IMG/VR virus record: IMGVR_UViG_3300008261_000396 | Coordinates: 1-53,205 of that record | DNA: 53,205 bases | Direction: 5' to 3' (one strand) | DNA from: a virus | Taxonomy: Duplodnaviria > Caudoviricetes | Part shown: positions 12,020 to 53,205 of the stretch, one piece after another | Numbering within the stretch: position 1 is the first letter of the stretch | Layout: the number at the start of each line of letters is the position of its first letter | Notes under the pieces: generated by a model | The model's database searches: none | What the model was told of the DNA's origin: nothing | Seen by the model: only the letters and a program-made list of their open reading frames with translations | Translations under genes and position numbers: made by a program

Positions 12020-12020
12020 T

Positions 12021-14325: not shown

Positions 14326-14326
14326 G

Positions 14327-26957: not shown

Positions 26958-26967
26958 TCTTATTAAA

Positions 26968-29799: not shown

Positions 29800-29817
29800 C
29801 AATAGAAAAAAAATACT

Positions 29818-32999: not shown

Positions 33000-33355
33000 C
33001 ACCTACGGAAGCTATAATGAATACTGGAAAAGGGTTGAGTTTTGTAGATCCTAGTTATGGTCATAACTATATTGTTAGAAGAGATAATGTAACTGGTAAT
33101 TATAGTATTACTGGTAAGATAAATTCTGTTGATGATAATGGTAAACCTATTGTATATTCACTAAGTGAAACAGTTCCATATGGAAATAATATTGATGATA
33201 AAATTTCTAAAATAATGATAGATATACATAATACTAATGTGCATCTTAAAAAAGTTTATACAAATTTTCATAATCTTGAGGATACTCAAAAGAAAATGAA
33301 TATGGAAAAAGCATTTGGTAAAAGTTTCAAAAACGCAGGACTAAAAATTATATAA
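32948..33355 (+). CDS. Probable C-terminal part of the 30459 cargo protein (frame open from 32903)
   Basis: Upstream in-frame FEEIKEYDEANGITF leads into MAPQSNW; overlaps the previous ORF by 52 nt. Confidence 0.6.
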   Translation: MAPQSNWRNNLYQSNKITPTEAIMNTGKGLSFVDPSYGHNYIVRRDNVTGNYSITGKINSVDDNGKPIVYSLSETVPYGNNIDDKISKIMIDIHNTNVHLKKVYTNFHNLEDTQKKMNMEKAFGKSFKNAGLKII

Positions 33356-36300: not shown

Positions 36301-38200
36301 TAAAGACAGTGTTCTTTATGAAAAGTATGCAGGAATATTTATAGAAGCTGCTCGGTTATCTCAAAAGAAACCAGCTGGTGACCCTGCTACAGAGAAACAA
36401 AAGCTGGATGATGAGTTAACAGATCTTGCAAAATATAAAAATGATGAGTTAAGAGTTGCAGCTCAGGATTATGACCAATCTTTTATTGATGAAGTTGGTA
36501 TGTCAGTACAAGAAGCAACTGCAAAAAACCAAGATGTTGAAGAATCAAATGCTCAATTAGAAATAGATCAAAAAGCTGCAACAGAAAAAATTGGTAAGCT
36601 TCAGAACTTATTAGAACTAGTAGGTAAAGATCCTATTGACTCAAATGAAATAGTAAAACTTTCTGATGAATTATTAAATAAAGGTGAGTTAGAGTTAAAT
36701 GCTGATGAGATAGATCCTGAAGCTATGGGTGCTATAACATCCCGTAAGTTTAAGAAAGCTGACCCGGATACTATAAATGAAGCAGTTTTTACAGTATATG
36801 TTTTATCTGAAAAATTCCCTACACTATTAGCTGATAAAATTGCTGAGCAAAAAGAAATACTTAAAAAACAAAAAGAGTCTTTGATTGATATTGAAGGTAC
36901 TAAAAGTTTTAAAGTAAATGCAGAAAGAGTAGCTCAAATAAATGAAAGATATACAGCTTTAGAAAATCAGATACTTAACAAGTATAAAGAAAAAGGTGTT
37001 GACAAATCTACTGTAGATGAGTTTACTCCACAAATGGGTTATGCTAATTTTCCAGAAGATTTGCAGTCTCAGATTGATACTGAATTCAATGCTTATTTGA
37101 CTAATGAACTTGAGATGGATCCAAAAAGTTTGATGGATACTAACATCAAAAAATATGAGGAGATTAGACAAAACTGGATTGAAAAAGAAGGTATAGAGTT
37201 ACTTAAAAAATATAATGAGCAAGTAAAAGCAGAGGGTGCAGCAAGAGCAGAAGCTTTGACCAAACCTCCTGTACTAACTTCTAGAATTTTTAAGAACATA
37301 AAAATTGAGGCTAGCATGCCTACAGGAACATTGAATGTTATCCTAGATAAAATGGAAGCAACATTGAAGAGTAAAATCTTTAATGATGGGGCTACTGAAT
37401 TTAAACTTTCAGAACAAGATATCAATGAAATCAATGAAGATGTTCAGAAACTTAAAACCTTCCTACAGTACAAACAAGGAAAGTTACAACCTGTAAGTGT
37501 AGCAGAAAAAGCATTTAATAGTTTTAGAAAAAATGTTCTAGCTAGACAAGATGAACTTGAGGATGTATTTGATGAAGATGGAAACAAGATAGGTAGAAAG
37601 TTTGCAGGAGATCCTGATTCAAAACTAACCACAAGAGCAACTAATATTTCTGACGGTATTGCTTCTGAATTATCTGATGAAACAAAACCAGGTTATTCAG
37701 ATGAGAATGTTGACAAAATAGTAAATGTGTTTTTTGGTGTGTATAATGATCATATTAAAAAAGGTGATCCAGATGCATTTAACAAAGCTTGGGAAGCATT
37801 TTCTATTGCAGCCAGAGATTCATATAAACAGTTGAACACAGAAGATAAAAAAGCTAGAATAAGAGCTTCTTTAGAAAAAAACACAACTGAAGAAAACTTT
37901 AGAAAGCTTATTGGTAAAGAGGCATTCTCAAATAACTCAGAAGCTGGTACTAATCTTGATGCTGCTGTAAGAACATTCTTTACTATAGATGATAATACTG
38001 GTACTTGGAAGTCTTTCAAATACAGTGACACTATTGAAATTGAAGGTAAAGAAACTAAGATTTCAGACATCATGAGTGAGACAGCTTTTGATAAAATGTT
38101 TGGAATTAGAGGTATTGTTACAAGATTTAGAGAAAGTTTAACTGCTCAAAATTATATACCATTAACAAACAATGTAAAACTGTTTGATAAAAACTTATGA
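33359..38200 (+). CDS. Large ejected cargo protein with Gly/Ala-rich membrane-like helices and coiled coils, ending in an apparently incomplete PD-(D/E)xK-like region
   Basis: 1613 aa, no Cys seen; AGILLEGAVEGAMVSGAIGAATGG, EGIQEISQ, FASGFLMGSLL; SEAGTNLDAAVRTFF near the end. Confidence 0.75.
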   Translation: MAKTIINSGSGLDLKNASVANKVININDATAGITPNKPAIATKSDNPVKDLNDHVQGVIQRQKMLQTTLRDDNEYGKTFTFDNSPSSASFKARYKGYGQETYNRIGFDPDVNNESIYNQNTTTFDDMGRWLKHSAAPMLGLGFLAPVHSYGKLLGSGDVGADRQEAKDYEYYNSIGYSSRGGIGGFATNLLNSVSYSAGILLEGAVEGAMVSGAIGAATGGELNLLGGALGGMKALTKVPSALFQSAKNIGKISKSLQALKNINNAKNFWKTAGTIGQKAGEFINPFENTLDAVKLLKETDDVSKLARTARTAGAFWHDVMGINMALSEGRLEGGFSEQNVYNKLYNDYYAKHGKAPSIELQQEMMLDSKKAGFKNTLYNTGLVFYSNKVAFPSITRAKFLKGAPRLNFGKVVGEVGNEFQIMFNPADDVAKATYTKEAISLKNSIKALKSPKQWGKLGLNYFKGNLMEGIQEISQEALASAVEKYYVDSFYNPSVRGYRYGMAAMFDGLDKQLNAQGGETFASGFLMGSLLEGPSKMFKFGTKNFSRIFKDKAVNEEYVKQREAQANAIVNSLNNMHKNAKYFFDPRINNYSNQMLTAKMVDNPDNVETKVLKDAEFAAFQSSVQTALRTGTYDTFLDNLKEYKNTTPEELEEAWSLEPGQGEKALQNIDKAITSAKETAARYKMAKDKFKDYVDPQQYKEGSPEYTAAIIYNKAYEESINSLVFLQSTFDNHIDRLGKMYNQLDKLKSISSSPFSNFDVITDAVKLNEQINYLKQDIESGETSTLPEAVAQVRQKRELLKALDRFQKAQDSNSGENLNLLLNAINEGNTTPEMNEYFNSFLNLLETIAGSEENKVTLRNEIDKLGGHEDLFSSLIDIHFLKHEQLNTAKYINILADPAGFRESVNRNFDWMKRMYDNRKEYYKDIVNQEITNVERNEILNTLAADGIFVDLDEFAKFVEDPENYLPEYFIDTTKEMIINKDSVLYEKYAGIFIEAARLSQKKPAGDPATEKQKLDDELTDLAKYKNDELRVAAQDYDQSFIDEVGMSVQEATAKNQDVEESNAQLEIDQKAATEKIGKLQNLLELVGKDPIDSNEIVKLSDELLNKGELELNADEIDPEAMGAITSRKFKKADPDTINEAVFTVYVLSEKFPTLLADKIAEQKEILKKQKESLIDIEGTKSFKVNAERVAQINERYTALENQILNKYKEKGVDKSTVDEFTPQMGYANFPEDLQSQIDTEFNAYLTNELEMDPKSLMDTNIKKYEEIRQNWIEKEGIELLKKYNEQVKAEGAARAEALTKPPVLTSRIFKNIKIEASMPTGTLNVILDKMEATLKSKIFNDGATEFKLSEQDINEINEDVQKLKTFLQYKQGKLQPVSVAEKAFNSFRKNVLARQDELEDVFDEDGNKIGRKFAGDPDSKLTTRATNISDGIASELSDETKPGYSDENVDKIVNVFFGVYNDHIKKGDPDAFNKAWEAFSIAARDSYKQLNTEDKKARIRASLEKNTTEENFRKLIGKEAFSNNSEAGTNLDAAVRTFFTIDDNTGTWKSFKYSDTIEIEGKETKISDIMSETAFDKMFGIRGIVTRFRESLTAQNYIPLTNNVKLFDKNL

Positions 38201-40566
38201 GAATTTCATTAAAAAATGCTACACCATTTGTTACTGATGTAACTGTTGGTGGAGAAAAAAATAGGGATACTGAGTTAGTACCATTAGTACCAAATACTGC
38301 TAAGTTATTTAATACACTTGAGCTTGAATACTTACCTGATGTGGAAGGTAAGGGTATCACTATGTCTGTACCTACTATTGAAAGTAGTACACCTTTAACC
38401 CCTACTACAGAAGATATAGAAGCTAAAAAAGCTGACATAGAAAGAAGAAGACAAGAAGAATTAGAAGGAGAAAAATATTTTGTAAAAACTAATGCAGAAG
38501 GACTCAAAGCTGCTAAAGAATTTGTTGATAAAATCAATGCTAAATATGATGCAGAACTAGCTGCTTTAGGTAAAACTACTATAGAAACAAGTAAATCACA
38601 AATAACCACTTCAGACACATCTAAATTAACACTTAATGATAATGTAGGTAAACAAGTAGTTTTCAATGGTAGAGTTGGAACACTGATTTTACAAGATGAT
38701 GGGTCATATGGAGTTGAAGTTGATTTAGGTTTTGAGCAATCTATGGGTGAAACTTTAATAACAGCATTAGAAGGTGATTTGGCTTCTGCTAGAGGGGAAT
38801 TTGGAGATCCTGAATTAGCTGAAGAAATTCAAAAACAAATTGATGATTTACAAAAGATTAAAAAAGGTAAAGAAATATATACAGTTACTTCTGAAGGAAA
38901 GCCTGCAACTAATGGTTCTTCTGAAATTACTAGTGTTGGTTTATCTTTGATTACTCCTGTAAAAAATGTTGGTCAAATTTCTGTAATTAACAACCAAGTT
39001 ATTGATGCAGCATTTGAAGATGAGAATGAAACAATAGCAATTGTAAATGGTGTAAGGTATACTGTATCAAGAGGTCCTTCTGGTGATATAAACCAACTGG
39101 TTTATTTTAAAAATGATAAGAGAAGAGAAGACATTGATAACATCATATTTGCTATCAATACTAAAATTGCAAAACTAAGACAAAACATTACTGGTGTATA
39201 TGCAGCAAAAGCTAATCTTCAACAAAGACTTAGTGAATTAGAGAAGCAAAATGCTCCAGCTTCACAAATTAAAAAAGTAAAACAAGATTTAGCTATCTTA
39301 TCTCCTCAATCAATATTGAGTAAAATCAATAAAGGTAAAGAAGAGATTGAAAGACTTACTGCAGAAAGAGACAGTTTATCTACAGATGACAAAGTATTTA
39401 TTTATGAAGGTAATGTTAATGATGTAATATTTGCTTTAAACAGATTACCAAATTCTTTTCAGAAAAATAGCTTGGGTACTAAACCTCAAGACATAGAAAA
39501 AGAACTTAAAAAAATACATAGTTTATCAGATGCTTCACCTAAAGTTCAGGAAGAGATTACCATGATAATGCAAAAGAATCTTCCTAAAGAACTAACTGAA
39601 GTAAGACTACAAGGTATATCAGCATTAGGTAGAGGAGCTAAAAAGTTAGAAGCACTTAGAAAGGGTATCCAAAAAACAATAGATGCATTAAAAGAATATG
39701 AAACTTTTAAAATGTATAGTAATGATCCTTTTGGAGTAGCTGCTACTAATAGACAAATTAATGTATTAAAAGATTTACTTGATCACTTAGTTTTAATTAA
39801 CTTAACAGAAACAAATAGAATTGCTAAAAAACAAGATTATGAACAAGACCTTAACAAAATCTTCGGAGCAGAAACCGGAGATGAATCAAACATTGGTGTA
39901 TCTGAGATTCAAAGCCCTACCGGAACAACAACAGAGGGAGTTTCTGGAATGGAGGAAGCAGGAGAAACAAAAGAAATCCCTTTTAATGAACTCCAAAAAA
40001 TAGTTAATTCTTCTATTGATGAGCTTGCTGAACTAACTCCTGAAGTAAATAAAGCAACAGAAGCCTTTGCAAAAATCAAAGATACTATTGAGTTATTTAA
40101 TAAGAAAAAAGAGTTAATAGCTAAGATGTCCAAGAATAAACTCAATTTAGCTCAAATAGAGTCTGCATATCAAAATAGATTAGCTGAGTTAGAGAATAAT
40201 GTTGATATCAATTCATTAAAAAAAGGTGATCTTTTACAAGATGTTACTAACTTTACAGAACAAGATTCTCCTGTACAAGTAGTGGATATTAAAGAAAATT
40301 CTGTTATATTAAAGTATGGAGATACAAAAAGAGAAGTAACTGAAGAGGAACTTCAAAATAATTTTGTTAAACCTTCAAAAGAAACGCAAATGACTCAGAC
40401 AGAAAAACCATCACAAGAAACTGTAGAAGCTTCAGAACAAACTAAAACTGATGCTAAAACATTCTTTGAAAATAAAGAAACTGAAGCTTCTGATTATAAA
40501 GAAGCAAAGGAATCAAATGAAGATGATTTATTCAAAAACTTAGAAGATAACTCAAAAACTTGTTAA
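38197..40566 (+). CDS. Coiled-coil cargo protein, or C-terminal part of the 33359 protein; ends in Cys
   Basis: 789 aa; ATGA overlap; DIEAKKADIERRRQEEL...INAKYDAELAAL module; its only Cys is the last residue. Confidence 0.7.
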   Translation: MRISLKNATPFVTDVTVGGEKNRDTELVPLVPNTAKLFNTLELEYLPDVEGKGITMSVPTIESSTPLTPTTEDIEAKKADIERRRQEELEGEKYFVKTNAEGLKAAKEFVDKINAKYDAELAALGKTTIETSKSQITTSDTSKLTLNDNVGKQVVFNGRVGTLILQDDGSYGVEVDLGFEQSMGETLITALEGDLASARGEFGDPELAEEIQKQIDDLQKIKKGKEIYTVTSEGKPATNGSSEITSVGLSLITPVKNVGQISVINNQVIDAAFEDENETIAIVNGVRYTVSRGPSGDINQLVYFKNDKRREDIDNIIFAINTKIAKLRQNITGVYAAKANLQQRLSELEKQNAPASQIKKVKQDLAILSPQSILSKINKGKEEIERLTAERDSLSTDDKVFIYEGNVNDVIFALNRLPNSFQKNSLGTKPQDIEKELKKIHSLSDASPKVQEEITMIMQKNLPKELTEVRLQGISALGRGAKKLEALRKGIQKTIDALKEYETFKMYSNDPFGVAATNRQINVLKDLLDHLVLINLTETNRIAKKQDYEQDLNKIFGAETGDESNIGVSEIQSPTGTTTEGVSGMEEAGETKEIPFNELQKIVNSSIDELAELTPEVNKATEAFAKIKDTIELFNKKKELIAKMSKNKLNLAQIESAYQNRLAELENNVDINSLKKGDLLQDVTNFTEQDSPVQVVDIKENSVILKYGDTKREVTEEELQNNFVKPSKETQMTQTEKPSQETVEASEQTKTDAKTFFENKETEASDYKEAKESNEDDLFKNLEDNSKTC

Positions 40567-40568
40567 TA

Positions 40569-43500
40569 ATGATATGTTCACTCAATGAAACTCAGCTTTC
40601 AGATTTAAGAAAAATAACATATAAAAAACTTTCTGGACTTAAACCTTCAGAAAGTTTTGATTTAAAGGTATATATAAAAGATATATACCAAAGAATTGAG
40701 AAAGCTGCTGGTGAAGAAAAAGCTTTACAATATGCTCAAATCATTCCTCTTACTATACATTTTGTGCAGGGTGATGATGAAATAAATAGCATATTAGCTA
40801 AAACTGATTTTAATCCTTCAGATATAATGAAGTTGAGAGCAGAATTTAATGACATTAAGAATGTTAAGAAATATGTTACTACACCAGTAAGAAAAAAATC
40901 TAAGAAAGAATTAAAGAGTGAGTTAGAACATGAAAACTTTCAATTAGATAATTTGGAGATTACAGATCCTGATTATTCTGTATTGGAAAAAATGGATAAA
41001 GCTAAAATTGAATATCCTAATGTTACAACATTTCAATTTGGTGAAGATAAAAATCCAGATGATCCAAATACACAAATTCAAGATGATGTTTTAGCTGAAG
41101 ATAAAAAAGTTTTTGACACAGTGATTAAAAAAATCATGAAGGCTCATAAAGAAAAAACTGTTGATCAAGACAATCCTGTTATTGGTGGTACAGAAGTTTT
41201 TTTAAAAATGATGTCTTCAGAAAGCTTTGAAAATAAGCACAAATTATCTAATCATAAAACTGTAACTGCTAAATCTTACAAAGGTGTTTTTGCTGTTGTT
41301 ACAGATATTGATGGTAATTACTTATACTTTGATGAAAATGGTAATTTAACTACTGAAGATAAAGGTACAGTTGTTTATCAGTTTATAAGAAAACCTTATT
41401 TGTTGGAAGATAAACTAAATAAAAAACAACATGCTTTGTTTATGATTTATCATAACCTTGGTAAAATGTATAAAAATACATTGGTTGCAGCAAGTAAAAT
41501 TGCAAAAAGAGTTGGTTTATCTAGTAAAGAAGTTTTAAAAAATCAAACAGAAAACATGAATGGTGTTTATAATATGCGTAAAGATATTATAGACAACAAC
41601 ACTTCATACATTACTCAAATTAATGGTGGTAGTTTTGGTATATTGAGTGCAAAAAATAAAAGAAAGATTAATGATCAATTACAAAAAACTGTAAAACTTA
41701 CAAGAGAAATTGTTAAAGATGCAAAAATTATATCAAGTACAGATTTAAGTGAAGGTTTTGCTCAATTCTTTGTTCAATATAATACTCCAATTTTTGGTGA
41801 AATAAGTATGCCTGTAAACATACAGAGGGGTAATTTTGATCAAGAACTTGCTAATAAAGTAGCTGATGTTATTACAACTAAAGCTACAAATAAAGGTAGA
41901 ACTTTGTCTGATGATGAAAGAATAGCTTACTTCAAAGTATTTTTAAATAATCAAAAAGTAAGTAAAAAAGGTGTTAAAAATAAAAATAACATTTTTTTAG
42001 ATAAAGTTGCTGGTGGACCACTTACTTTAACAATTAATGGTGAAAAGTTTGAAGGAGATGCTATCTTTACTACTGCTGTAAGAGACAAGATTGCACAGCA
42101 TTTACCAACAGCAATTAAGTTTGGTGACAAGGGTTCAATTGGAGCTAATGTAAATATTTCTAATAGCTATAAAGATAAGGGGACCTACACAGATTATGAA
42201 ATTTCTGGAGATAAGTTTAAACCTGTTGAAAAAGATTATATTGATGAAGTAGTATTGAAGTATGCAAAGCCACAATTTACTAATGAAGGTGGTTCAATGA
42301 TTTCAGGATTCAATCCTTATTTAAGTTATTCTATACCTAGTCAGTTTACAGAAGATGCGGATTCATTTTTTGATATTGCATTAGACTCAAAGACTGCAGC
42401 TCCAGTTAGGAAAAAAACTCAGGCTGAAAAGAATGAAACTGCTGAGAAAGTTGTAAAAGAAAAATCAAAAGCTGTTCAGAAAAAAAGAACTACTAAAGTA
42501 CCAGCAGCTACTGAGAATGTTGAAGTTATTATTGAGCACAATTGGTTTACACCATTTAAGAATGATTTGTCAGAAGAAGATGCTAACGGTTTTAATTTAG
42601 ATAGAAGTAAAGCTTTAGATAATTTTTTAGATAAGGTTTTCACTACTGAAGCTGACAAAGCAGCAGCAGAAACTTGGTGGGCTAACTCTCCTTTGAGTAA
42701 GTATATTAGCTTAAACAGAATAACTCAGATTGTAAACTCAAATGCATTTGCAACATTTACAGGAACTGGTATCACACTTTATGAAGGTGATGGTGGTACT
42801 GCTGTAGATTTATACCATGAAGCATGGCACGGATTCTCTCAGTTATTTCTAACAAGAGATGAAAAGATTAAGTTATACAATGAATTAAAGGGCCAACCAA
42901 AGTGGGCCAATAAATCATTCTTTGATATTGAAGAAGATATTGCAGAAGACTTTAGAGATTATGCAAGAAGCAGAGGTAAAAAAGAAGCACCTAAAGGATT
43001 TTTGGGTAAAGTATTTCAGAGAATTTACAACTTCCTACAGAACCTCATAGGCAGAGTAAGCAAACAAGACTTAGCTACAAGACCAAGAGACATTGAATCA
43101 GTAAAAGAATTGTTTGACAAATTGTACAGAGCTTCTGAGAATCCAGAGCTATTACAAGATATGCAACCTTCTACTGACAACATGATGTTTACTCAGTTGA
43201 ACAGAGCTAAAGCTATTACTTCTGTAAAAGATGTTGCTACTAAGTATGAACCATTTGATTCTGCTGAATCTTTGAAAGTTGTGAATTATTTGGACAGCTT
43301 AATTCCTGACATTTTTAATTCTGTAAACCAACAAAGAAATAGTTCTTCTGCACCAGTTAGAGTATTACAAACTAATGCAAATAGAAAACATTTATATAAG
43401 CTTTTAGAAAAGAAAATATCTGAAAGATTTAATCAATTAAGAGAAGACTTTGCAAAAACTGCAGCTGAGGGTGGTGATATTGATACATTGGAATTAAATC

Positions 43501-46500
43501 AACTTCCATTTTTAGGAAGAATGCTAGATAATTTTGGGAATGTTGATGCAACAATTGACGGTAAAGATCAGAAAGGTGTTATTGCTTTTCACATGCAAAA
43601 TTCTAGATTCAAAATTTTAGCAAATAAATTTGTTGAGTTAGAAGAAGATCCAACTGACATAAATAATTCTAGAATTGTTAGACTTGATGGTGGTAATATT
43701 TTCTCTTCAAGAGAAGCAGCTAGTCAAGAGACTAAAACTATTTTATCCAGTATTTACAAAGTAGACAGAAATAAAACAAAAGTTACTGTAAATGATGAGG
43801 GTAAACAAGTTTTATCTATTGAATATGAAGTAGACCCTCAAACAGGTTTATACATGCTCTTAGATGAAAGAGAAATGTGGAGTAAAGTTGCTAAAGTATT
43901 AGCAGGTTCTTTTGTAAACATTACCAAAACAGCTGATGATGTATTAGCAGAAGCAAGAGTACAAAGAACAGATTTTGATAGAACTAAAGTTTTAAAAGAT
44001 TGGGAAATAAATTTTCTTACTGTTGCTGACTCTAAATTTATTGTTGAAAATAAATCAGGGCAAAGAGTATTAGATTTAGACAAGTTTGTAAAACATTTTA
44101 AGAATAACATAAATTCTAAAAATGTTCTTGAGTTCTTAAATGCATTAGGTATTGTGATGGATACATCAAATCCTACAATTGCTAGTGTTGTAGCTGATCC
44201 TAACTTTGTAAATAAGTTTGCAATTGGGCACATCTTTGATTCTTTAGAGCATATAAATAAAATGTATGATCCTGAAAAATTTACTTTTTTAAGAAACCCT
44301 CTTGCATATTTAAAAACAAGTTTGCCTAAGACATTAGATCCTGGTCAAAAATTTGATTCTTCTTCAAGAATAAAAGAACTTGCAAATATACAAGTAAGAT
44401 TTTCAGATAAGTATTCTAACTTTAGTGCAGTTAGTCCTGAAGGAAATAGAGTATGGGAGCATTTCTTGGATAATACTTTTACAAGAATTATGACTTCTTT
44501 AAATCATACAAAATCTTGGCAAGAACTTACAAATCCTGATGCTGATCCAAATGGTTTGTTCAGACATATGCGTTACTTAGCATATGACAACAATACTTAC
44601 ACAAGACATTCTGTATTACTAAAATCATTATTTAATGATTTGTTGGCTGTAAATAATCCTGGTGGTAAAAAAGATAACACATTGGTAATTCAAAATGTGG
44701 CGGGAACACAGTTAATTGACACTAAAACTAATAATCAACAAGGTGTTTCTACAGCATCAATGGATGCTACAAGTAAATACTTGCAAGAGATCCATACTAT
44801 GTTGATGAGTGGTGTAGAAGAGTTCATGAGACATGCTTCTAAACAAATGTCACAAGGTATTGTATTAAAAAATGGTCTTAAAACTTATGATAATAAAAAT
44901 GCTAAAAACTTATATGTTGATATAGAGAAGTTTTTACCAACTACAAACTCTGGTGAAGACTATGCATTTGATATTTTATCTGGATACTTGACTGGTGAAG
45001 TAAATAGAATTTTTAGATTTAGTTCTGATTTAGAAAAATATTCTCAATTTACAGGTTATACAAGAACTGTAAATAGAAAAACAGGAGAAGTTGTAATGGC
45101 TGGACAAGCTCTTACTGCTTTTGAAGATGTATTATCTAAAGATACTCAAGCAAAAATATATGCTATAGTAGATAAAGCTGTTGCTGATAAACAATCTGAT
45201 TTTGATTTCTCAGATATATATGATGACAACGCTAAGCTAACAGAAGAGATAAGAAAAGATGTTGCTAAGTATTTTAACAGTATAACAACTGAGTTGAAAC
45301 AAAGACTTGATAAAACAAAGTTTATTGATCCTGCTTTAAGAGGTAGAGTTGAAAACAAAGGTGTTGAACTTACAGTAGATGAATCTGATACAACACTGAT
45401 GAAAGCATATGCTTACAACTCTTGGATTCACAAGTTTGAAACTGCTATTCTTGGTTATGGAGACTTAGCACAATACAATCATGCTAAAGAAGAATTCCAT
45501 AAAAGAAATGCTGGTTTTGGTTCTGGTGGTTTAGGCTTTGCTTCTGATTTAAAGTCAAGAAGTTTTGTAAATAAAATGCCTAAGTTATTTAATAAAATAG
45601 CACCAAGTAAACCATTTGATGGTACTTTAACTACAGCAATCATAAAAGAAAGAGTTATAGAAAAGTCTGTGTATTATGATGAGTACTATGATGCTCTTGT
45701 AAAAGACTATACAAAAAGATTTGGTGATAAAACTAAGGCAAAAGAATTAGCAAAAACTGCTTTAAAAGAATATAATAATATGAAGATTGGTGATGGTCAA
45801 GGCCACATTAGTTTTGAATCATATAGAATACTTAAAAATCTTGAAGGTAACTGGTTACCAGAACAAGAAGAGTTGTATAAAAAGTTAGCTAATGGTGAAG
45901 AAGTATCTGTAGAAGATGTTGTACATTATTTTCCTCCATATAAATTACAGTATTGTGGAGCTATGGAAACTACAGGCTTACCTGTTACTTCATTCCATAA
46001 ATTCTCACTTGCTCCAATTATACCAGGAGTAGCTAAAAAAGGTACACCACTATATGATTTGCACCAAAAAATGATGCTTAATGATGTAGACTATGTTGTA
46101 TTTGAAACAGGTTCTAAAGTTGGACATTTAGGAACTGGTGATGAAATATATGATGAAAATGGTAATATTCTTATGGATGAACCATTTACAAAAAATGTAA
46201 TCTTCACAGAGTTCTTAAAGAATCAAACAGAAGTTAACTCTGAGTATAAAGGTAAATCTATTTTTTCTACTCAGATGAGAAAGTTAGTTTTAGATAACTT
46301 GTATGAAAATGGTGTAATCAATTCTCCTGATGAGAAAGATGTAGTATCACCATTAGTAAAAAGATATCTTGATAATGTATCAGATTATACTGAGTTAGTT
46401 AAATTAGAATTATTAGAAGAAATTGGTTTTGATGAAACTTCTGACGGTGAATACAAAGCAAGAGACAAAGAAAGTATAGGTAAATTATTATCACTTGTTA

Positions 46501-49500
46501 GAAATAACTTAGATAGAGAAGAATCTTACAGTGATGAAATGCTCAACTTTATTGATGCTCTTGATAGTGGTGAGTTATTACATGATTTATCATTACACCC
46601 AGAAGCATTAAAAATTGAGAAGCTTTTATTATCTCTGATTAACAAAAGAGTTATCAAACAAAAAGTAAAAGGAGAACCACTTGTACAAGTATCTTCTGCT
46701 TTTTATGAAAATAACCTTACAGAGTCTCCTAATTTTAGAAATGCAACTGATGCAGATAAGAAAAAATGGGTAGGTAGTAACTTACTTCCTACTTATCATA
46801 AGAAGGCGAATGGTAAAACTGCAGCAATGAAGGTTATGATTGCATTACAGGGGGACTATGTTAACTTGTTGAATCTTGAATATAAAGGGGCAACTATTGG
46901 AGATATTGATACATTAAACAAAGCAATCAAAGATGATAAATGGTTAGATGCAAATGATAGTGCTAACAGAAAAGCAATAACTCTTGTAGGGGTTAGGATT
47001 CCAGTTCAGGGTCTAAACTCTATGGAGTTTATGGAAGTTTATGAGTTCTTACCTCCACAAGCAGGTAATATAATCATTCCTCCAGCTGAGATAGTTGCTA
47101 AGTCAGGGGGTGACTTTGATATTGATAAACTTACAATCTTTATGACCAACATAGACATAGATGGTAAGCTTAAAGAAAGAACCTATAAAAATACTGCGGA
47201 GCTAAAAGCTTCTCTACAGAACATCAAAGATAATGAGGATGAATCCATAACTAAAGCTTTCAAACAACAAAAAGCAGGAGTAGAGAATGACTTGATGAAT
47301 GATATCAAAGAAATACTTGAGCTTCCACAAAACTTTGTTTCTCTTATTACACCAAATGGTACTTTCTTATTGAAAGATATTGCTGACAAACTAGCTGCAG
47401 ATGTGATGGAATATGATCCATTCAAAAATTACATGACTGATACAACAACAGAACCTGAAAAAGGTAAGAAAATTATCAGTGCAACAAGAGTATTAGAACC
47501 TCTTTATAACTTATATAAACATGAATCTAATATTGTTGGTAAGAAAACATTAGGTTTAGGTGCTATAGAAAATACAATGAATGTATTGTTAAACTCTATT
47601 GGAGCCCTTATGCCAGAAACATATACCAATGCTTATTCAAAAGTAACAAGAACCACTAATATAGGTTTAAGACATAATGTAAGGAAAGTTGATGGTACGG
47701 ATAGAATATCCCTATCTAACTTATATGATGTTAACAATGTGAATAAAATAGCTGATGTATTCTCACAAGCAATGAACGGCTGGGTGGATGTTGAAAAAGA
47801 TGCATGGATTTTCTTTATCCAAGGTAACTATGAGGTAGCACCTATATTATTATATTTAATTAAAGCTGGTGTTCCTGTTAAAGAAGCTATTTACTTTGTA
47901 TCACAACCATTAGTAAGAGAATATGTAGATGAACAGCGTCTTGCTAAATCTACATTTGCTTCTGTATTAGGAAAAGCTCCAGAAGAAAAGACATTTGTGA
48001 AGTATCAATCAGCTTCTAATATCATTAATAAATATTTCAATCCTTCTGTATTACCAGCTAAAGGTGAAGCATATGTTAGATTTGAAACAGGACGTAAGTT
48101 ATTTGATAAATTAATGAAGGATAGAAAAGATAAACATTTTACAGAAAAAGAAATGTTACAGTTAATACAAGATTCTAAAAAGAATAATAATTTTAAATCT
48201 TCTGACTTATCATTAACTATGTTCTTACACTACTTGGATATTGAAGACCAGATTAAGGGTATTACACAGGTTAAAATGAACTCTAATCCAGATACTAATA
48301 CTAAGTCAGTATTATCTGATATTGAGACATCAGAAGCAAGATTAGAAAACTTAGAAAATAATCCTGAGTTACAACCAATAATATCTGCTTTGATGAGCAA
48401 CTCAGTTATTAGCTCATTCTTTAATAACAAACTAGCATTGTCTTTAGCTGCACCATTGTTTAAATTAAGATACAATGATGCAATCCGTAGATTTATTAAA
48501 TCTGAAGATGATTCCAATACTTTAAGCAAAAATATAAAATCTACATTTGGTGAAAGTGGTAGAGATAATTATTTGAATACTTTCAAAAATGATTTAGTAA
48601 GTTACATTTTTCAAAATAGATTGGTTAAAACAGACATTAAAAAAGGTTACATATCTTATGATGCAAAAGAATTACCAAGTAAACAGATGCTTTCTGATAA
48701 ATTTGGAGCTTTTGTAAAAACAAATAAAGATGGTAGCAAAACTTTGTTTTATAATCTTAAAAATTTAGAAAAAGAATATACATCAGGTGTATGGAAAGAA
48801 GATGCAGAGAAACCAAACCATTATTCACAGTTAGGATTACATCCTGTTCCAGCAAATACATTTACAATTGCTAAAGGAAACAACACACAAGCTTATGCTA
48901 GATTTGTAATGGAAAGAGAGTATTTAAGATCTATTTATCCAATTGCAGAAACAGGTTTAGAAAAAACAGCTTATGAAGAGTTTCTAGCAAACAGAGCACT
49001 TGATAATACTTTTAATGTTAATCATTTATTTAGTGATCCAAAAAATGCTTTTGCTGTAAGATTATATGACATAATCTTGACTAACCCTAAGCTTGTAAAT
49101 AAATTTGATGTGTTATCAAAACTAGAGCTTGATAATAATACTCAAAATACTATGTTCAATCTTAACTTGATTGACCGTGATATTGACAACATCAAAGCAA
49201 ATATTTACACTAAAAATTTAACAGACTTAGCAGATCCTGTTTTGTTAAAAGCATTAGCTAATGAATTAAGTTTGAGTGACCAAGATATAGAAAACATTTC
49301 TTACTTATTCTCTAGACTTCCTTTGTTTGCATACTTGCAATCAGGTATCAATAAAACTAAATCTAACTTAGTTCCTTATGTAAGTACAGAATCATTCTTA
49401 AACATTATGGATGATGCTGTCAAAGACTTTACTGAACTTCTTTCTAATCCGGATAAAGCTGAAAGAGTATTAAGAGATTTTTATGACAAGTTTAATGCTC

Positions 49501-51893
49501 AGAATAGTTATAAAAATAAAGACAAAAACAGATTTAAGAACTATTTTACTGATATTGACTTTAATAAAGTAGGTACTGGAGGAGCTATACAAGTAAAAAA
49601 AGGAACTGTTGAAAAAACAAATAATATTATTTTAAGAAGTAATTTAAAGGCAAATCCTGCAAGTTTGTATTTATTTGGGGATAATGATGTAAGAAAAGGT
49701 TTAGGAGGTCAAGCAAAAGAAATGCGTGGTGAACCAAATGCTATTGGTATATCTACTAAAAAATTACCAGCAAGAGGTGAAGAAGCATATAAATCAGATG
49801 CTGAACTAGAAGAAAACAAAAAAATCATTACTGAAGATATAAACAAAGCAATTGCTGAATGGAATACAGGAAAGTATAACAAACTTATTATTCCACAAAT
49901 GGGTGTTGGTTTAGCTGAGTTACCTACAAGGGCTCCAGAAACATATAAGTTTTTACAACAAGAACTTAAAAGATTAGAAAATCATGTTGCTCAACCAGCT
50001 ACTAGTGTTAATGAATTAACTGAAGAAGATGTTAAATGGTTGCGTGCTAATAGAAAACTAATTGAAACAACATATAAGAGTAGTAATCTTTTTGGAGCTA
50101 GAGACACTGAATTAAAAACTCCTTTATTCTTTGATAATAATAAAACTAAAGTTATTCGTATTGATCCTGATCCAGCTGATACTTCTAGAATTATATTTGA
50201 AAAAGATTCTAAAACATGGATGGTTAAACTAGAAGAAAAAGATAATAAAGTAAGTCCACGTTTATATGAATGGAAAGATGTTTATGGTAAAGGAGAATTT
50301 TCATTTTATGCAACTGATGGTTCTACTAAGAGTGATTTAGAAAACATAAATAAAAGTGGATTAATGAATTTAATTAATCAGCTTTATGAAGATACAAATA
50401 TTCCTGATCCAGGAGATAAACAACTTATAGTATCAAATGCTCTTCAACAAAAATATGGCTTAAAAAGAACTTATAAAGATATAATTAATGAGTTAAATCC
50501 TACTATTCAACCAACTACTGAAGCTGTAGATGTTAAAGTAATTTCAAAAGATTATGGTGTTGTTGTAGCTGAGACTAAACCAAACAATACAAAAACTAAA
50601 GAGTTTGTAAAAATTATACAATCACAAATTAAAGCACAAGCATACCAAGAAAATAAAACAGGTAATAAAATGTTCATGTATGGTCTTAGATGGACTAGAA
50701 AAGCAAAAGCAATTAAACCAATAGTTAACAAAAGTTATGCAAATGGTGGTTTACCAACAACAGATGCTAAAGCAACTGATGGATATGTATATGATACTTT
50801 GGACCAAAATGGTAAACCATTAGCACCTTTATCAGATCTACAACCTATAATTAATGAGATTCAAAACGCATTAGGTATTGATATGTCTAACTATGATGCT
50901 GTAATTGGTAACATTTATTTACCCGGACAAAGAATTCAGACACATAGAGATACTACTGAAAGTTTAAGTGCTAGAAATTATCCTGTTGTAGTGTATACAA
51001 TAGGTGCAGGTAATGCTATTAATATTTATGAAAATTTAAAAAATCCGGGTTCGGCTAGTTTTGCAAGTGATAAAAAAATATCTATACCTACAGAAAACGG
51101 AACTATCTATACATTTGGTATGGATGGTAAAGGAAGATTTGAATTAGGTCACGATACACCACATGCAGTTCAAAAAGGAGATACTCAAGAACCAATTACT
51201 ATGCCTGATGGTACAGTAATTAAAGATTATACAATTACTCTTACATTCAGAAGAGCTGCTGATTTAGAACAAGGTATGCCTACAGCTCCTGCTAAAACTA
51301 AAGTAATATCATCAGCTATTGAAGCTGTAGAAGAACAAACTAATGATCTTATTACTACACCAGATCCTAACATCTTTTTGTATGATGATTCAAAAGATGA
51401 CAGTGCTGCTTTCTACAAAAAATTAACCAGTACTAATTCTACAGTAGGTTTTGTTTATAATGCAACCAAGTTTGAAATAGATAATAATAAAGATCTTCCT
51501 GGACAAGGTTATTTAAGATTAGTATCCAAAGATACTGCCTTACCTTTTGTTACAAGTTTGACTAGTAATTTTGATAACTTTAGTAACTTAGCACCTGAGA
51601 ATTATCAAATTGTGAAAAACTATTTTGATAGAAAAATTCAGGAGCTTAAAAATGCTAAAGACTTAGGTAACAAAATAGCACTTCCTAAAGCAGGAATAGG
51701 TGATGCTAAGAAAATGCCTCAAGAATTATTTGTATATTTAAGTAAGAGGTTATTTGAAGAGTTAGGTTATTTAAATCCTGGTTCTTCAGCTTACAAAGAC
51801 ATAACTGAAGTAATAAGTAATAAACAAGGTATATCAGATGATGAAATTCTTGCATCACTAGGTTTTGAATCTGATCCTTTTAACTGTGTATAA
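40569..51893 (+). CDS. Virion RNA polymerase (phi14:2 gp66-like, double-psi beta-barrel) with an N-proximal zincin-like domain and C-terminal macro-like, AlkB-like and degenerate macro-like domains
   Basis: HEAWH 42816 plus EEDIAE; DGQGHIS 45792; RIPVQG 46995; catalytic DFDIDK 47112; WVDVEKD near 47781. ATG 40569 preferred over TTG 40560, which overlaps the upstream gene. Confidence 0.92.
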   Translation: MICSLNETQLSDLRKITYKKLSGLKPSESFDLKVYIKDIYQRIEKAAGEEKALQYAQIIPLTIHFVQGDDEINSILAKTDFNPSDIMKLRAEFNDIKNVKKYVTTPVRKKSKKELKSELEHENFQLDNLEITDPDYSVLEKMDKAKIEYPNVTTFQFGEDKNPDDPNTQIQDDVLAEDKKVFDTVIKKIMKAHKEKTVDQDNPVIGGTEVFLKMMSSESFENKHKLSNHKTVTAKSYKGVFAVVTDIDGNYLYFDENGNLTTEDKGTVVYQFIRKPYLLEDKLNKKQHALFMIYHNLGKMYKNTLVAASKIAKRVGLSSKEVLKNQTENMNGVYNMRKDIIDNNTSYITQINGGSFGILSAKNKRKINDQLQKTVKLTREIVKDAKIISSTDLSEGFAQFFVQYNTPIFGEISMPVNIQRGNFDQELANKVADVITTKATNKGRTLSDDERIAYFKVFLNNQKVSKKGVKNKNNIFLDKVAGGPLTLTINGEKFEGDAIFTTAVRDKIAQHLPTAIKFGDKGSIGANVNISNSYKDKGTYTDYEISGDKFKPVEKDYIDEVVLKYAKPQFTNEGGSMISGFNPYLSYSIPSQFTEDADSFFDIALDSKTAAPVRKKTQAEKNETAEKVVKEKSKAVQKKRTTKVPAATENVEVIIEHNWFTPFKNDLSEEDANGFNLDRSKALDNFLDKVFTTEADKAAAETWWANSPLSKYISLNRITQIVNSNAFATFTGTGITLYEGDGGTAVDLYHEAWHGFSQLFLTRDEKIKLYNELKGQPKWANKSFFDIEEDIAEDFRDYARSRGKKEAPKGFLGKVFQRIYNFLQNLIGRVSKQDLATRPRDIESVKELFDKLYRASENPELLQDMQPSTDNMMFTQLNRAKAITSVKDVATKYEPFDSAESLKVVNYLDSLIPDIFNSVNQQRNSSSAPVRVLQTNANRKHLYKLLEKKISERFNQLREDFAKTAAEGGDIDTLELNQLPFLGRMLDNFGNVDATIDGKDQKGVIAFHMQNSRFKILANKFVELEEDPTDINNSRIVRLDGGNIFSSREAASQETKTILSSIYKVDRNKTKVTVNDEGKQVLSIEYEVDPQTGLYMLLDEREMWSKVAKVLAGSFVNITKTADDVLAEARVQRTDFDRTKVLKDWEINFLTVADSKFIVENKSGQRVLDLDKFVKHFKNNINSKNVLEFLNALGIVMDTSNPTIASVVADPNFVNKFAIGHIFDSLEHINKMYDPEKFTFLRNPLAYLKTSLPKTLDPGQKFDSSSRIKELANIQVRFSDKYSNFSAVSPEGNRVWEHFLDNTFTRIMTSLNHTKSWQELTNPDADPNGLFRHMRYLAYDNNTYTRHSVLLKSLFNDLLAVNNPGGKKDNTLVIQNVAGTQLIDTKTNNQQGVSTASMDATSKYLQEIHTMLMSGVEEFMRHASKQMSQGIVLKNGLKTYDNKNAKNLYVDIEKFLPTTNSGEDYAFDILSGYLTGEVNRIFRFSSDLEKYSQFTGYTRTVNRKTGEVVMAGQALTAFEDVLSKDTQAKIYAIVDKAVADKQSDFDFSDIYDDNAKLTEEIRKDVAKYFNSITTELKQRLDKTKFIDPALRGRVENKGVELTVDESDTTLMKAYAYNSWIHKFETAILGYGDLAQYNHAKEEFHKRNAGFGSGGLGFASDLKSRSFVNKMPKLFNKIAPSKPFDGTLTTAIIKERVIEKSVYYDEYYDALVKDYTKRFGDKTKAKELAKTALKEYNNMKIGDGQGHISFESYRILKNLEGNWLPEQEELYKKLANGEEVSVEDVVHYFPPYKLQYCGAMETTGLPVTSFHKFSLAPIIPGVAKKGTPLYDLHQKMMLNDVDYVVFETGSKVGHLGTGDEIYDENGNILMDEPFTKNVIFTEFLKNQTEVNSEYKGKSIFSTQMRKLVLDNLYENGVINSPDEKDVVSPLVKRYLDNVSDYTELVKLELLEEIGFDETSDGEYKARDKESIGKLLSLVRNNLDREESYSDEMLNFIDALDSGELLHDLSLHPEALKIEKLLLSLINKRVIKQKVKGEPLVQVSSAFYENNLTESPNFRNATDADKKKWVGSNLLPTYHKKANGKTAAMKVMIALQGDYVNLLNLEYKGATIGDIDTLNKAIKDDKWLDANDSANRKAITLVGVRIPVQGLNSMEFMEVYEFLPPQAGNIIIPPAEIVAKSGGDFDIDKLTIFMTNIDIDGKLKERTYKNTAELKASLQNIKDNEDESITKAFKQQKAGVENDLMNDIKEILELPQNFVSLITPNGTFLLKDIADKLAADVMEYDPFKNYMTDTTTEPEKGKKIISATRVLEPLYNLYKHESNIVGKKTLGLGAIENTMNVLLNSIGALMPETYTNAYSKVTRTTNIGLRHNVRKVDGTDRISLSNLYDVNNVNKIADVFSQAMNGWVDVEKDAWIFFIQGNYEVAPILLYLIKAGVPVKEAIYFVSQPLVREYVDEQRLAKSTFASVLGKAPEEKTFVKYQSASNIINKYFNPSVLPAKGEAYVRFETGRKLFDKLMKDRKDKHFTEKEMLQLIQDSKKNNNFKSSDLSLTMFLHYLDIEDQIKGITQVKMNSNPDTNTKSVLSDIETSEARLENLENNPELQPIISALMSNSVISSFFNNKLALSLAAPLFKLRYNDAIRRFIKSEDDSNTLSKNIKSTFGESGRDNYLNTFKNDLVSYIFQNRLVKTDIKKGYISYDAKELPSKQMLSDKFGAFVKTNKDGSKTLFYNLKNLEKEYTSGVWKEDAEKPNHYSQLGLHPVPANTFTIAKGNNTQAYARFVMEREYLRSIYPIAETGLEKTAYEEFLANRALDNTFNVNHLFSDPKNAFAVRLYDIILTNPKLVNKFDVLSKLELDNNTQNTMFNLNLIDRDIDNIKANIYTKNLTDLADPVLLKALANELSLSDQDIENISYLFSRLPLFAYLQSGINKTKSNLVPYVSTESFLNIMDDAVKDFTELLSNPDKAERVLRDFYDKFNAQNSYKNKDKNRFKNYFTDIDFNKVGTGGAIQVKKGTVEKTNNIILRSNLKANPASLYLFGDNDVRKGLGGQAKEMRGEPNAIGISTKKLPARGEEAYKSDAELEENKKIITEDINKAIAEWNTGKYNKLIIPQMGVGLAELPTRAPETYKFLQQELKRLENHVAQPATSVNELTEEDVKWLRANRKLIETTYKSSNLFGARDTELKTPLFFDNNKTKVIRIDPDPADTSRIIFEKDSKTWMVKLEEKDNKVSPRLYEWKDVYGKGEFSFYATDGSTKSDLENINKSGLMNLINQLYEDTNIPDPGDKQLIVSNALQQKYGLKRTYKDIINELNPTIQPTTEAVDVKVISKDYGVVVAETKPNNTKTKEFVKIIQSQIKAQAYQENKTGNKMFMYGLRWTRKAKAIKPIVNKSYANGGLPTTDAKATDGYVYDTLDQNGKPLAPLSDLQPIINEIQNALGIDMSNYDAVIGNIYLPGQRIQTHRDTTESLSARNYPVVVYTIGAGNAINIYENLKNPGSASFASDKKISIPTENGTIYTFGMDGKGRFELGHDTPHAVQKGDTQEPITMPDGTVIKDYTITLTFRRAADLEQGMPTAPAKTKVISSAIEAVEEQTNDLITTPDPNIFLYDDSKDDSAAFYKKLTSTNSTVGFVYNATKFEIDNNKDLPGQGYLRLVSKDTALPFVTSLTSNFDNFSNLAPENYQIVKNYFDRKIQELKNAKDLGNKIALPKAGIGDAKKMPQELFVYLSKRLFEELGYLNPGSSAYKDITEVISNKQGISDDEILASLGFESDPFNCV

Positions 51894-51895
51894 AA

Positions 51896-53205
51896 ATGGT
51901 TTGTGAAGTTAAAGAAAATTCTATTAAACATTTAGAAAGAGAAAAAGCTACTAATAGTGAAAGAAAAATAATTGATACAGCAAAGTTTAATGAGCTCAAT
52001 GGAAGTCTCACTAAACTTGCTGTAGACAAGTATGGCTTAGAAACAAATGGTCAAATGCTTTTTAGTAATATTCAAATAAAAGCAGAACCTAATGATTCTC
52101 TATTTGAAAAACTTCAAGAACTCAAAGTTAGATATGATGAAAGACAAGCAATAGCTGATAATGCTGTTGTACCAAAAGAAGATTACAATAATGATGTACA
52201 AGAATTATTTAATTCTAATCCTGAATTAGCTAAGATAGGTACACCACAACAATATACAGAGTATATAAAAACTATATTTCCTGATAGTCAAATAAAAGAT
52301 ATTGTTTACCACGGTACTGATGTAGAATTTGAAAAATTTATGTTGGAATATTTAGGTGTAAATACAAAAGCTTCTGATACAGATAGAGGTTTTGCATTTT
52401 CTAATAATAAAAATGTAGCAAAAACATATGGAAAAAATATAAAATCTGTAATAATAAATGCACAACATATTGAAAATGTACCACCAGTATCAGAACAATA
52501 TGATGATATTTTAAAACCTGAGTTTTTAAGTTTAAAAGAACAAATAACAAGTTTAAAAAAAATAATTGCTGAACAAGAAAAAATTAACAGTATAAATACA
52601 GTAGATCAACTTCCAAATTCATTCTATGTATATTCAGAAAAAATCAAATCTTTTGTAAAAATTGTAAAAGAGAATGGTTCTTTTTATGCATATATTAATA
52701 ATGAAAAAATAAATGATAAATTAAATAACAAACAAGTTTTATCTTTATTTGAAACAACTAAAAAAAACACAAAAGATTTAGTTAAACAATTGAATTTATT
52801 AACTGATGAAAATACTGCATTTATTTATAAAGACATAATAGATAACAGAAATATAGAAAGCACAGTTAGAACTAATGTATATTTTGCTAAACCTAATCAA
52901 ATTTACACATTGGGTTCTAAACAAGATATAGAAGGGTTTAAACAGTTTGTTAAAGGTGTTTCTAAACAAGCCATGTTTATGAAAACTCCTGAAGTAGGGT
53001 ATTCATTAAAATTAGTTACTGCATTGATGAACTTATCTTCTTCAAAAGAAACTAAAAGAACAAGGAAGTATGGTGAACAAACAGAACCTGAAAGATTAAC
53101 AATCAGATTAAACACAAAAGAAAAACCATACCTAGAAGATAACATTAGAAAAACACTTAATAACAAAGGTGTTACAAATCAACAAGTTGATTTTGTATTT
53201 GACTA
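51896..53205 (+). CDS. Next giant cargo protein (5' part, runs off the window) with an ART-PolyVal-like ADP-ribosyltransferase domain; not in the ORF track
   Basis: Hand translation, open for about 436 codons: MVCEVKENS...ELFNSNPELAKIGTPQQYTEYIKTIFPDSQIKDIVYHGT...RGFAFSNNKNVAKTYG...KPNQIYTLGSKQDIEGFKQFV. Confidence 0.85.
   Translation, partial: MVCEVKENSIKHLEREKATNSERKIIDTAKFNELNGSLTKLAVDKYGLETNGQMLFSNIQIKAEPNDSLFEKLQELKVRYDERQAIADNAVVPKEDYNNDVQELFNSNPELAKIGTPQQYTEYIKTIFPDSQIKDIVYHGTDVEFEKFMLEYLGVNTKASDTDRGFAFSNNKNVAKTYGKNIKSVIINAQHIENVPPVSEQYDDILKPEFLSLKEQITSLKKIIAEQEKINSINTVDQLPNSFYVYSEKIKSFVKIVKENGSFYAYINNEKINDKLNNKQVLSLFETTKKNTKDLVKQLNLLTDENTAFIYKDIIDNRNIESTVRTNVYFAKPNQIYTLGSKQDIEGFKQFVKGVSKQAMFMKTPEVGYSLKLVTALMNLSSSKETKRTRKYGEQTEPERLTIRLNTKEKPYLEDNIRKTLNNKGVTNQQVDFVFD

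Follow-up and report, generated by a model that had tools for sequence, protein, structure and literature searches.

The closest described counterparts of the locus considered here are the virion RNA polymerase modules of the crAss-like phages phi14:2 and crAss001. According to the available text of the phi14:2 report, the trio gp67, gp66 and gp65 is present in virions and is fused in some phages, the fused polyprotein forms being assumed to be cleaved into their components, and a few residues at both ends of gp66 are unresolved (10.1101/2020.03.07.982082). For crAss001, the accessible part of the published atlas places gp47, gp49 and gp50 in the cargo zone of the capsid, which they must partly unfold to leave, regards ejection order as likely set by packing and mutual interactions, describes many structural disulfides in the virion (portal-vertex gp57, the tail hub and the ring proteins), and includes LC-MS/MS on reduced and unreduced virion samples (PMC10172136). 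Here we present an analysis of a 53,205-nucleotide stretch of viral DNA, positions 1 to 53,205 of the IMG/VR virus record IMGVR_UViG_3300008261_000396 (Duplodnaviria; Caudoviricetes), which is called the window below. As judged from homology, the RNA polymerase module of crAss-like phages, made up of three proteins, is encoded in the window; its packing into virions and its injection are known from the phi14:2 and crAss001 literature. The gp67/gp47-like member is called A below, the gp66/gp50-like polymerase R, and the gp65/gp49-like member C. The three proteins are nearly free of cysteine (Cys), and the few residues retained stand at the ends that face each other in the order A, R, C; sequence comparison confirms that this observation generalises to a rule across crass-type phages.

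On the whole, phi14:2 gp67/gp66/gp65 and crAss001 gp47/gp50/gp49 are homologous to the window proteins, stand in the same order and carry the same terminal cysteines. The window clade differs from them in its larger proteins (3,774 against 2,180 amino acids for R) and in a variable effector insert before the conserved C-terminal domain of R. It also differs from crAss001 in the place of a zincin-type HExxH motif, which lies in R in the window and in A in crAss001.

Cysteines at the facing termini of A, R and C

All large open reading frames (ORFs) of the window, and all features given below, are on the + strand. Protein A is read there in two pieces: an N-terminal part with its own ORF of 1613 amino acids and no cysteine (33359..38200), and a C-terminal part of 789 amino acids (38197..40566), which ends NSKTC and has its sole cysteine as the last residue (TGT codon at 40561..40563). 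Protein R, a giant virion RNA polymerase-like protein of 3774 amino acids (40569..51893, with its ATG at 40569), starts MIC, ends FNCV, and has three cysteines in all, namely Cys3 (TGT at 40575..40577), C1796 in a QYCG context, and the penultimate Cys3773 (TGT at 51885..51887). Protein C (51896..53203) is cut by the window end; its 436 visible residues start MVC and have Cys3 as their only cysteine (TGT at 51902..51904). Gaps of 2 nucleotides separate the genes at both junctions, TAA-TA-ATG between A and R and TAA-AA-ATG between R and C. Thus four of the five cysteines among the 6,612 residues of A, R and C in the window lie no more than 3 residues from the facing termini, and the probability of finding at least four of five within 12 positions at the four facing termini is 5.4e-11. 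The scarcity of cysteine begins well before A: by ORF count there are 7 cysteines in 10,799 amino acids from 20064 to the window end (the gene 29818..30462 being left aside), and the upstream genes at 902..19735, several of which match virion structural PHROGs, contain 1.0-8.2%.

Most of these features had been pointed out in a preliminary description of the DNA, and the ORF sequences bear them out: a single cysteine, the very last residue, across the products that begin at 33359 and 38197; a polymerase with a MIC start, an FNCV end and one other cysteine (C1796); a next gene that starts MVC and is otherwise free of cysteine, over the 436 residues visible; Cys-rich structural genes upstream; and the 2-nucleotide gaps. 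The wider proposal of that description, that the cargo proteins are chained in gene order, agrees with the pattern in A, R and C and does not extend to the other cargo ORFs at 20064..33355, since the remaining Cys-free ones among them have no terminal cysteine. The candidate chain is limited to three members, A, R and C.

The naming of the three proteins is based on homology to phi14:2 and crAss001. When R was compared with phage records by tblastn, 108 matches were obtained, all below 60% identity and all to crass-type phage records, including phi14:2 g066 (E 2e-14), which is annotated as 'Catalytic RNA polymerase subunit'. By blastp, R is 24% identical to phi14:2 gp66 over 497 amino acids (E 3e-21) and matches crAss001 gp50 (E 8e-20). 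The full-length partners can be compared in G001, a close relative whose record is complete at 121,857 bp, and its A matches crAss001 gp47 (E 6e-11). Residues 1-85 of P0241, a C of the same type and 88% identical to that of G001, match residues 1-84 of phi14:2 gp65 at 39% identity (E 5e-12), beyond which the two proteins are barely alignable; the C-terminal part of C matches crAss001 gp49 (E 2e-5). R is thus flanked by gp67/gp47-like and gp65/gp49-like genes, as in crass polymerase loci. In addition, R has a DFDID motif at residues 2182-2186 (GGDFDIDK at 2180-2187; nucleotides 47112..47126), found in the sequence and in an alignment of 39 sequences where D2182, D2184 and D2186 are invariant. 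DFDxD is the signature of crAss-like virion polymerases, as given in the available text of 10.1101/2020.03.07.982082. The statement of the preliminary description that this giant ORF is an RNA polymerase finds support in the gp66 homology and the DFDID motif, by which R is a virion RNA polymerase-like protein, and none in Pfam, PHROGs or PDB sequences. Specifically, R matches no PDB chain at E up to 0.01, no polymerase family in Pfam (only DUF7831 and a sub-threshold 2OG-Fe(II) oxygenase), and only phrog_2072, of unknown function, in PHROGs. Searches of A and the other cargo ORFs against Pfam and PHROGs gave no families, and megablast of 38000-53205 against the phage collection gave no match.

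The terminal cysteines are conserved within the clade. The homolog sets consist of the R query with the best 120 of 370 homologs (42-92% identity), all 119 for A (25-100%), and the best 120 of 216 for C. In R, Cys3 is found in 117 of 121 sequences, a cysteine in the last 5 residues in 120 of 121, and no internal cysteine in 102 of 121; the exceptions (four without Cys3, one without the C-terminal cysteine) are shorter proteins or have non-Met starts, and look like truncated gene calls. Among the A homologs, 116 of 119 have a cysteine in the last 5 residues and 93 have no other, with an N-terminal cysteine in 1 of 119. Protein C has Cys3 in 105 of 120 homologs, Cys4 in two more and the same motif behind a longer called start in another two, and a C-terminal cysteine in 1 of 120. 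Taken by terminus, 87-99% of family members keep the terminal cysteine, although the frequency of cysteine is 0.063% over 415,000 amino acids of R, 0.052% over 279,000 of A and 0.044% over 266,000 of C. Conservation in homologs was where the preliminary description had placed the risk of refutation, and the cysteines are kept in about 120 homologs of each protein. The C-terminal profile of R reads E-E-D-P-F-K-C (D 94%, P 96%, F 95%, K 73%), its start M-A-C-x-L-N, and the start of C M-x-C-[EQ]-V-[KQ]-x-N. A full-library search with the C-terminal domain of R gave 63 representatives, of which 58 have a cysteine in the last 5 residues and one at -7 (negative positions are counted from the C-terminus), while in the remaining 4 the match stops before the domain end. 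In G001, A is one ORF of 2,430 amino acids ending NSKTCY, R has Cys3, one internal cysteine and Cys-2, and C (1,977 amino acids), the final gene of its strand block, has Cys3 as its sole cysteine, so that its C-terminus is free of it.

Presence and absence of the terminal cysteines follow gene architecture

The pattern recurs in distant relatives. In phi14:2, the last residue is the sole cysteine of gp67 (1,797 amino acids), gp66 (2,180 amino acids) has only Cys3 and Cys-2, and Cys3 is the sole cysteine of gp65 (1,421 amino acids); the same is seen in crAss001, DAC15, cr111_1, cr126_1, cr128_1 and cr116_1, with cysteines at 3-6 and at -1 to -9. In five of these genomes (crAss001, DAC15, cr126_1, cr128_1 and cr116_1) A is read from the other strand than R and C and yet keeps its terminal cysteine, so neither adjacency nor translational coupling is required, and the tight translational coupling which the preliminary description had used as an argument is not general. 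As the pattern is kept with A on the opposite strand, the offsets vary and some of the codons are TGC, the terminal cysteines are a feature of the proteins and not of the nucleotide sequence.

Overall, 27 genomes were compared, with A, R and C separate in 9 (A|R|C), A fused to R in 13 (AR|C), and R fused to C in 5 (A|RC). The AR|C group includes eleven Suoliviridae, cr108_1 and Flavobacterium phage Fpv1. Their giants of 4,300-5,800 amino acids consist, by blastp, of a gp47-type zincin segment and the polymerase; they lack the N-terminal cysteine and have one at -1 to -11, and the next protein has one at 3-5. The A|RC group consists of five Intestiviridae, including the p-crAssphage type, represented by the Carjivirus record LMMB, in which blastp finds the polymerase fused to a gp49/gp65-type C-terminus. 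Here the giants start MSC and lack the C-terminal cysteine, and the preceding protein has one at -1 or -2. Both kinds of giant have the same domains in the same order as the window proteins, with a peptide bond in place of one junction: the fused junction has no termini and no terminal Cys pair, the positions corresponding to those of the window being gone, while the unfused junction of the same genome keeps its pair. Among the 27 genomes, 71 of 72 junction-facing termini have a cysteine no more than 12 residues from the end, 68 of them no more than 6, as against none of 50 outer termini (Fisher P 1e-33, a value that ignores kinship). Of the 71 codons 65 are TGT and 6 TGC. The fused giant of cr1_1 has 2 cysteines in 4,551 amino acids (at 4026 and -4) and that of Fpv1 has 1 in 4,401 (at -2), none near the fused junction; the cr4_1 giant has one cysteine 178 residues past the zincin motif, and a fused junction free of relics is clear for cr1_1 and Fpv1 only. 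The single miss among the 72 termini is crAss002 gp33, annotated with Cys35. An in-frame ATG lies two codons before this cysteine and would give an MSC start as in relatives, so that the annotated start is probably 32 codons early.

The place at which A and R are separated is also not the same everywhere, as seen from the YHEAxH zincin-type domain. In the window clade it lies at residue 750 of R (HEAWH at residues 750-754, nucleotides 42816..42830; H750, E751, W753 and H754 are invariant in the alignment of 39 R sequences), in crAss001 the domain is placed within A (gp47), at residue 2157 and 184 amino acids before its end, and in the fused giants it stands upstream of the polymerase core. As the A|R breaks of the window clade and crAss001 are by this placement non-homologous, the Cys pair appears to follow the break point and not the local sequence; alternatively, the domain may have been relocated between proteins with conserved ends, instead of the break moving.

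Several further observations were made in these genomes. In cr10_1, an unannotated frame of about 1,200 codons with an MKIIC start follows directly after the giant gene, from about 21744 to the record end. The polymerase gene of cr116_1 (11242..22107) is interrupted by a 215-amino-acid ORF with 6 cysteines, and its first piece as annotated ends in a cysteine, which may reflect an intron that carries a homing endonuclease gene and not a true protein end. A small thioredoxin-domain/thiol-disulfide isomerase gene is annotated in the replication block of cr108_1, cr111_1, cr128_1 and ctcc615.

The proposed disulfide-linked chain and its alternatives

Since the two cysteines of a junction are lost together where that junction is fused, with the other pair retained, the pairing of the A end with the R start and of the R end with the C start is well supported by the comparative data. 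The preliminary description had proposed exactly such pairing, between the C-terminal cysteine of one protein and the N-terminal cysteine of the next. Conservation, the distant crassviruses, the empty outer ends and the pairless fused junctions speak for it, and complex prediction, a check suggested in the same description, lends it weak support. For the R-C junction, residues 3590-3774 of R with residues 1-100 of C scored 0.52, against 0.00 for the best control, which is a weak pass with no contacts returned; between runs at least 76% of contacts coincide, with a predicted local distance difference test (pLDDT) of at least 79 for the partner. Among solved complexes 58 of 80 reach the pass mark, as do 2 of 110 mismatched pairs, but scores up to 0.60 take in 7 of the 80 solved complexes together with both passing mismatches, and the calibration is rough, custom alignments having been used. 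The prediction thus supports adjoining R and C termini weakly, and a weak pass without contacts is to be counted on the negative side.

Other arrangements of the same thiols were considered and rejected. Cyclisation of R through its own N-terminal and C-terminal cysteines is argued against by the fused AR giants, which hold the C-terminal cysteine only while C still has its partner; the same giants argue against a crossed pairing of the A end with the R end and of the R start with the C start. A 'cysteine switch' acting on the zincin domains is rejected as well, there being one metal site for four conserved cysteines, two of which are far from the zincin in the fused forms. A generic anchor at every protein end is argued against by the Cys-free outer ends.

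The reading we propose, whose chances we judge to be evenly balanced, is a single linear chain able to be threaded, in which two inter-chain disulfides connect the RNA polymerase to the gp67-like protein on one side and to the gp65-like protein on the other; the disulfide chemistry, its timing and the roles in threading and release are what we infer. Selection would have purged nearly every cysteine from A, R and C, keeping one near the C-terminus of A, one at each end of R and one near the N-terminus of C. Within the virion, the four thiols would form two inter-chain disulfides, A-S-S-R and R-S-S-C, the conserved end domains first holding the termini together and oxidation then joining them, to give one linear chain of about 6,000-8,000 residues. 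Because the links would be at the extreme ends, the chain would be unbranched and could pass the narrow tail channel partly unfolded, each protein pulling the next, and the absence of other cysteines would keep stray cross-links from forming. Once in the cytoplasm, which is reducing, the links would be undone and A, R and C would come apart. Where two members are made as one polypeptide, a peptide bond would do the same job, hence no termini and no Cys pair there.

In function, such a chain would be equivalent to the polyprotein of the fused forms. We extend this tentatively, and with more doubt than confidence, to a split polyprotein stitched by disulfides: wherever A-R-C breaks, even at non-homologous points, a Cys pair would be placed at the new ends, so that the virion always holds one chain; entry into the cytoplasm would be the cleavage step that frees the active polymerase, and the purge of cysteine would keep the chain linear.

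A number of points weigh against the disulfide-linked chain. In the literature we found no statement for or against a disulfide bond or a covalent A-R-C species. Capsids are filled in the reducing cytoplasm and gut crassviruses are anoxic, which puts in question when and by what means oxidation would take place, though structural disulfides are described for crAss001. The cysteines are not at fixed offsets, those at C-termini ranging from -1 to -11 and those at N-termini from 3 to 6. In LMMB, a cargo-type protein of 861 amino acids (4539..7124) has a lone cysteine at -2, and in crAss002 gp30 has one at -8, in both cases with no cysteine at the next N-terminus, and the A-like protein P0240 has no cysteine in 3,918 amino acids. 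The MSC start of crAss002 gp33 is a re-reading of the annotation, and as annotated the protein has Cys35. Finally, the independent events are few: a quick polymerase-core tree of 26 rows (cr130_1 was left out, its polymerase core having been missed by phmmer) needs 3 architecture changes where the minimum is 2, and fewer are forced by branches with good support; its long branches include those of cr108_1 and Fpv1.

Known systems offer partial parallels. The structural disulfides of crAss001 indicate that crassvirus particles rely on inter-subunit bonds, which matches the Cys-rich upstream genes of the window; those bonds stabilise a fixed assembly, whereas the ones proposed here would join mobile cargo and open after delivery. 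In N4-like phages, Cys suppression in injected proteins is explained by passage through the periplasm, according to the available text of PMC11445570. N4 gp50 and DEV gp71-gp73 are likewise a giant injected virion RNA polymerase and partners with near-total Cys suppression, as in the window. Their cysteine content is essentially zero, with no conserved terminal cysteine, whereas the module of the window keeps its terminal ones. The N4-like virion polymerase is of the T7 type and not of the DFDxD type, and we know of no proposal that N4-like ejection proteins are chained. A more remote parallel, from adenovirus, is the peptide pVIc, by which a virion protein is disulfide-bonded to another one through a cysteine beside its C-terminus. 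It belongs to an animal virus and acts as a protease-activating cofactor, and neither a chain nor threading is involved.

The same comparative pattern may be read in other ways, which differ in how the thiols are used. Among them, a bridge by a metal ion (zinc, for example) or another non-disulfide thiol contact at each terminal pair, reversible and independent of redox state, is unlikely. It fits pairing, polarity and loss on fusion equally, it would suit gut phages that are anoxic and capsids that are filled in reducing cytoplasm, and acidic residues do stand beside the C-terminal cysteine of R (E 86%, E 72% and D 94% at -6 to -4); yet each junction offers only two thiols, the ends have neither a conserved His nor a second Cys nearby, the flanks in Steigviridae are basic and not acidic (MSKRC, MAKKC), and a single four-Cys site common to A, R and C is ruled out by the single-junction lineages, which keep exactly two cysteines.

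We rate as still less probable that the links form only after ejection, in the oxidising periplasm, through host thiol-disulfide oxidoreductases, building or stabilising an envelope-spanning assembly or retaining the polymerase for as long as entry lasts. Against this, early-gene transcription requires the polymerase in the cytoplasm, and N4-like phages cross the periplasm without any cysteine, so that keeping four needs a positive role. In its favour are the known rationale for Cys suppression, periplasm passage with catalysed disulfides (available text of PMC11445570), and the comparative data, which fit it equally.

That each terminal cysteine has a partner of its own, such as the portal, the inner capsid surface, other cargo or an acyl group, with junction pairing a by-product of free-end positions, is very unlikely. 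The lone C-terminal cysteines of other Intestiviridae cargo-type proteins, which have no N-terminal partner adjoining, are what one would expect of it, but it leaves unexplained why the outer ends and the junction-facing ends of the 27 genomes differ so completely (0 of 50 against 71 of 72), and likewise the near-absence of the N-terminal cysteine in A (1/119) and of the C-terminal one in C (1/120). The absence of any thiol function, with the pattern due to shared inheritance, to disordered ends under relaxed selection or to a nucleotide signal for coupled translation, has next to no probability: adjacent genes with 2-nucleotide gaps in the window and the prevalence of TGT (65/71), as AT-rich genomes predict, would agree with it, but it is contradicted by the conservation data, with cysteine the sole invariant residue at the ends across proteins of about 24% identity or less, other cysteines purged to 0.04-0.06%, outer ends free of cysteine and the pattern kept with A on the opposite strand, which together with the varying offsets rules out a nucleotide-level coupling signal.

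Domains, neighbouring genes and implications

Protein R is modular: its body (residues 1-3000) is conserved, as are its last 180 residues, and between them stands a variable insert (3000-3590). The insert (residues 3000-3589, 49566..51335) carries the DUF7831 match and the weak 2OG-Fe(II) oxygenase match (27.9 bits, below the Pfam cut-off of 31.2), and only about 1-26 of 120 homologs align in each 100-residue bin of it; relatives carry kinase- or zeta-toxin-type Pfam labels. The C-terminal domain that follows (residues 3594-3774, 51348..51890) ends DPFNCV, and 118 of 120 homologs align up to its end. On the other side of the junction, alignments mark a conserved N-terminal domain of about 95 amino acids in C (51896..52180). 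Past it, the region 52196..52600 is a window-specific stretch, with an ART-PolyVal match of 23.3 bits, below the cut-off of 31.2, and relatives carry LysM. A second HExxH, of the LHEFSH type, occurs near residue 211 of C and likewise at residue 245 of phi14:2 gp65. Variable enzymatic modules within a giant virion protein are known from the concept of polyvalent proteins, in which effector modules can be swapped.

The preliminary description had taken the ORFs at 33359 and 38197 as separate genes, which does not hold for relatives, where A is a single ORF of about 2,430 amino acids. Comparison with G001 shows that 211 nucleotides are missing from the window between short repeats at 38197-38203, a loss that shifts the frame and creates the ATGA overlap at the split; the missing segment encodes an IVDIKTS stretch. 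In contigs of four public runs, no listed piece spans 38197-38203, the pieces ending at 38203 or beginning at 38197, and unmatched piece ends in runs X2 and X3 match the segment of G001 that is missing from the window. From these the split was probably introduced by the assembly or is an uncommon variant; if real, it would be a junction without a Cys pair. Among 20 rows of runs matching 37600-38800, which come from 17 studies and 9 of which have at least half of the sampled words, most carry labels of lake water or freshwater metagenomes. Within 38380-38600 there are stretches where the summed depth is very high and the contigs have numerous small joints; these look like repeats of other organisms and were not used. 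Two of the 119 A homologs have a precomputed Pfam label for a PD-(D/E)XK nuclease (PF12705).

Upstream of A, five other ORFs, presumed to be cargo (20064..33355), have 2 cysteines in 4,187 amino acids. They are interrupted by a homing endonuclease gene with GIY-YIG and NUMOD3 (29818..30462; 6 cysteines in 214 amino acids), which is the sole gene of the cargo block with ordinary Cys content. Further upstream, the three consecutive genes 8698..9321, 9328..9867 and 9873..11348 have the same spacing of about nine cysteines in their first 80 residues, which suggests a common Cys-rich N-terminal domain, and gene 5288..6880 has 38 cysteines in 530 amino acids; no PHROG family matches any of these four.

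A full-text literature search, outside which are subscription-only papers and supplements, returned no description of the terminal Cys rule, nor of the chain, in keeping with the preliminary description, to whose author the idea was not known as described; one of the hits, on checking, names cysteine solely as an ingredient of a medium. By term search, the words cysteine, Cys and disulfide are absent from the available text of the phi14:2 gp66 preprint (10.1101/2020.03.07.982082), and the accessible part of the crAss001 atlas (PMC10172136) has no 'cysteine' and seven mentions of 'disulfide', all concerning structural proteins. The rule has already been of practical use, flagging the likely mis-annotated start of crAss002 gp33 and the unannotated gene of cr10_1. 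Podovirus-like phages have to drive several huge proteins through a narrow tail, and the manner and order in which they do so are a question that the rule of paired cysteines at facing ends makes cheaply testable, phi14:2, crAss001 and DAC15 being in culture. If the proposed chain is true, these phages would make the products of separate genes into one covalent thread of several proteins, whose release would be triggered by delivery, and this would explain the free interchange of fused and split architectures in the most abundant phages of the human gut.

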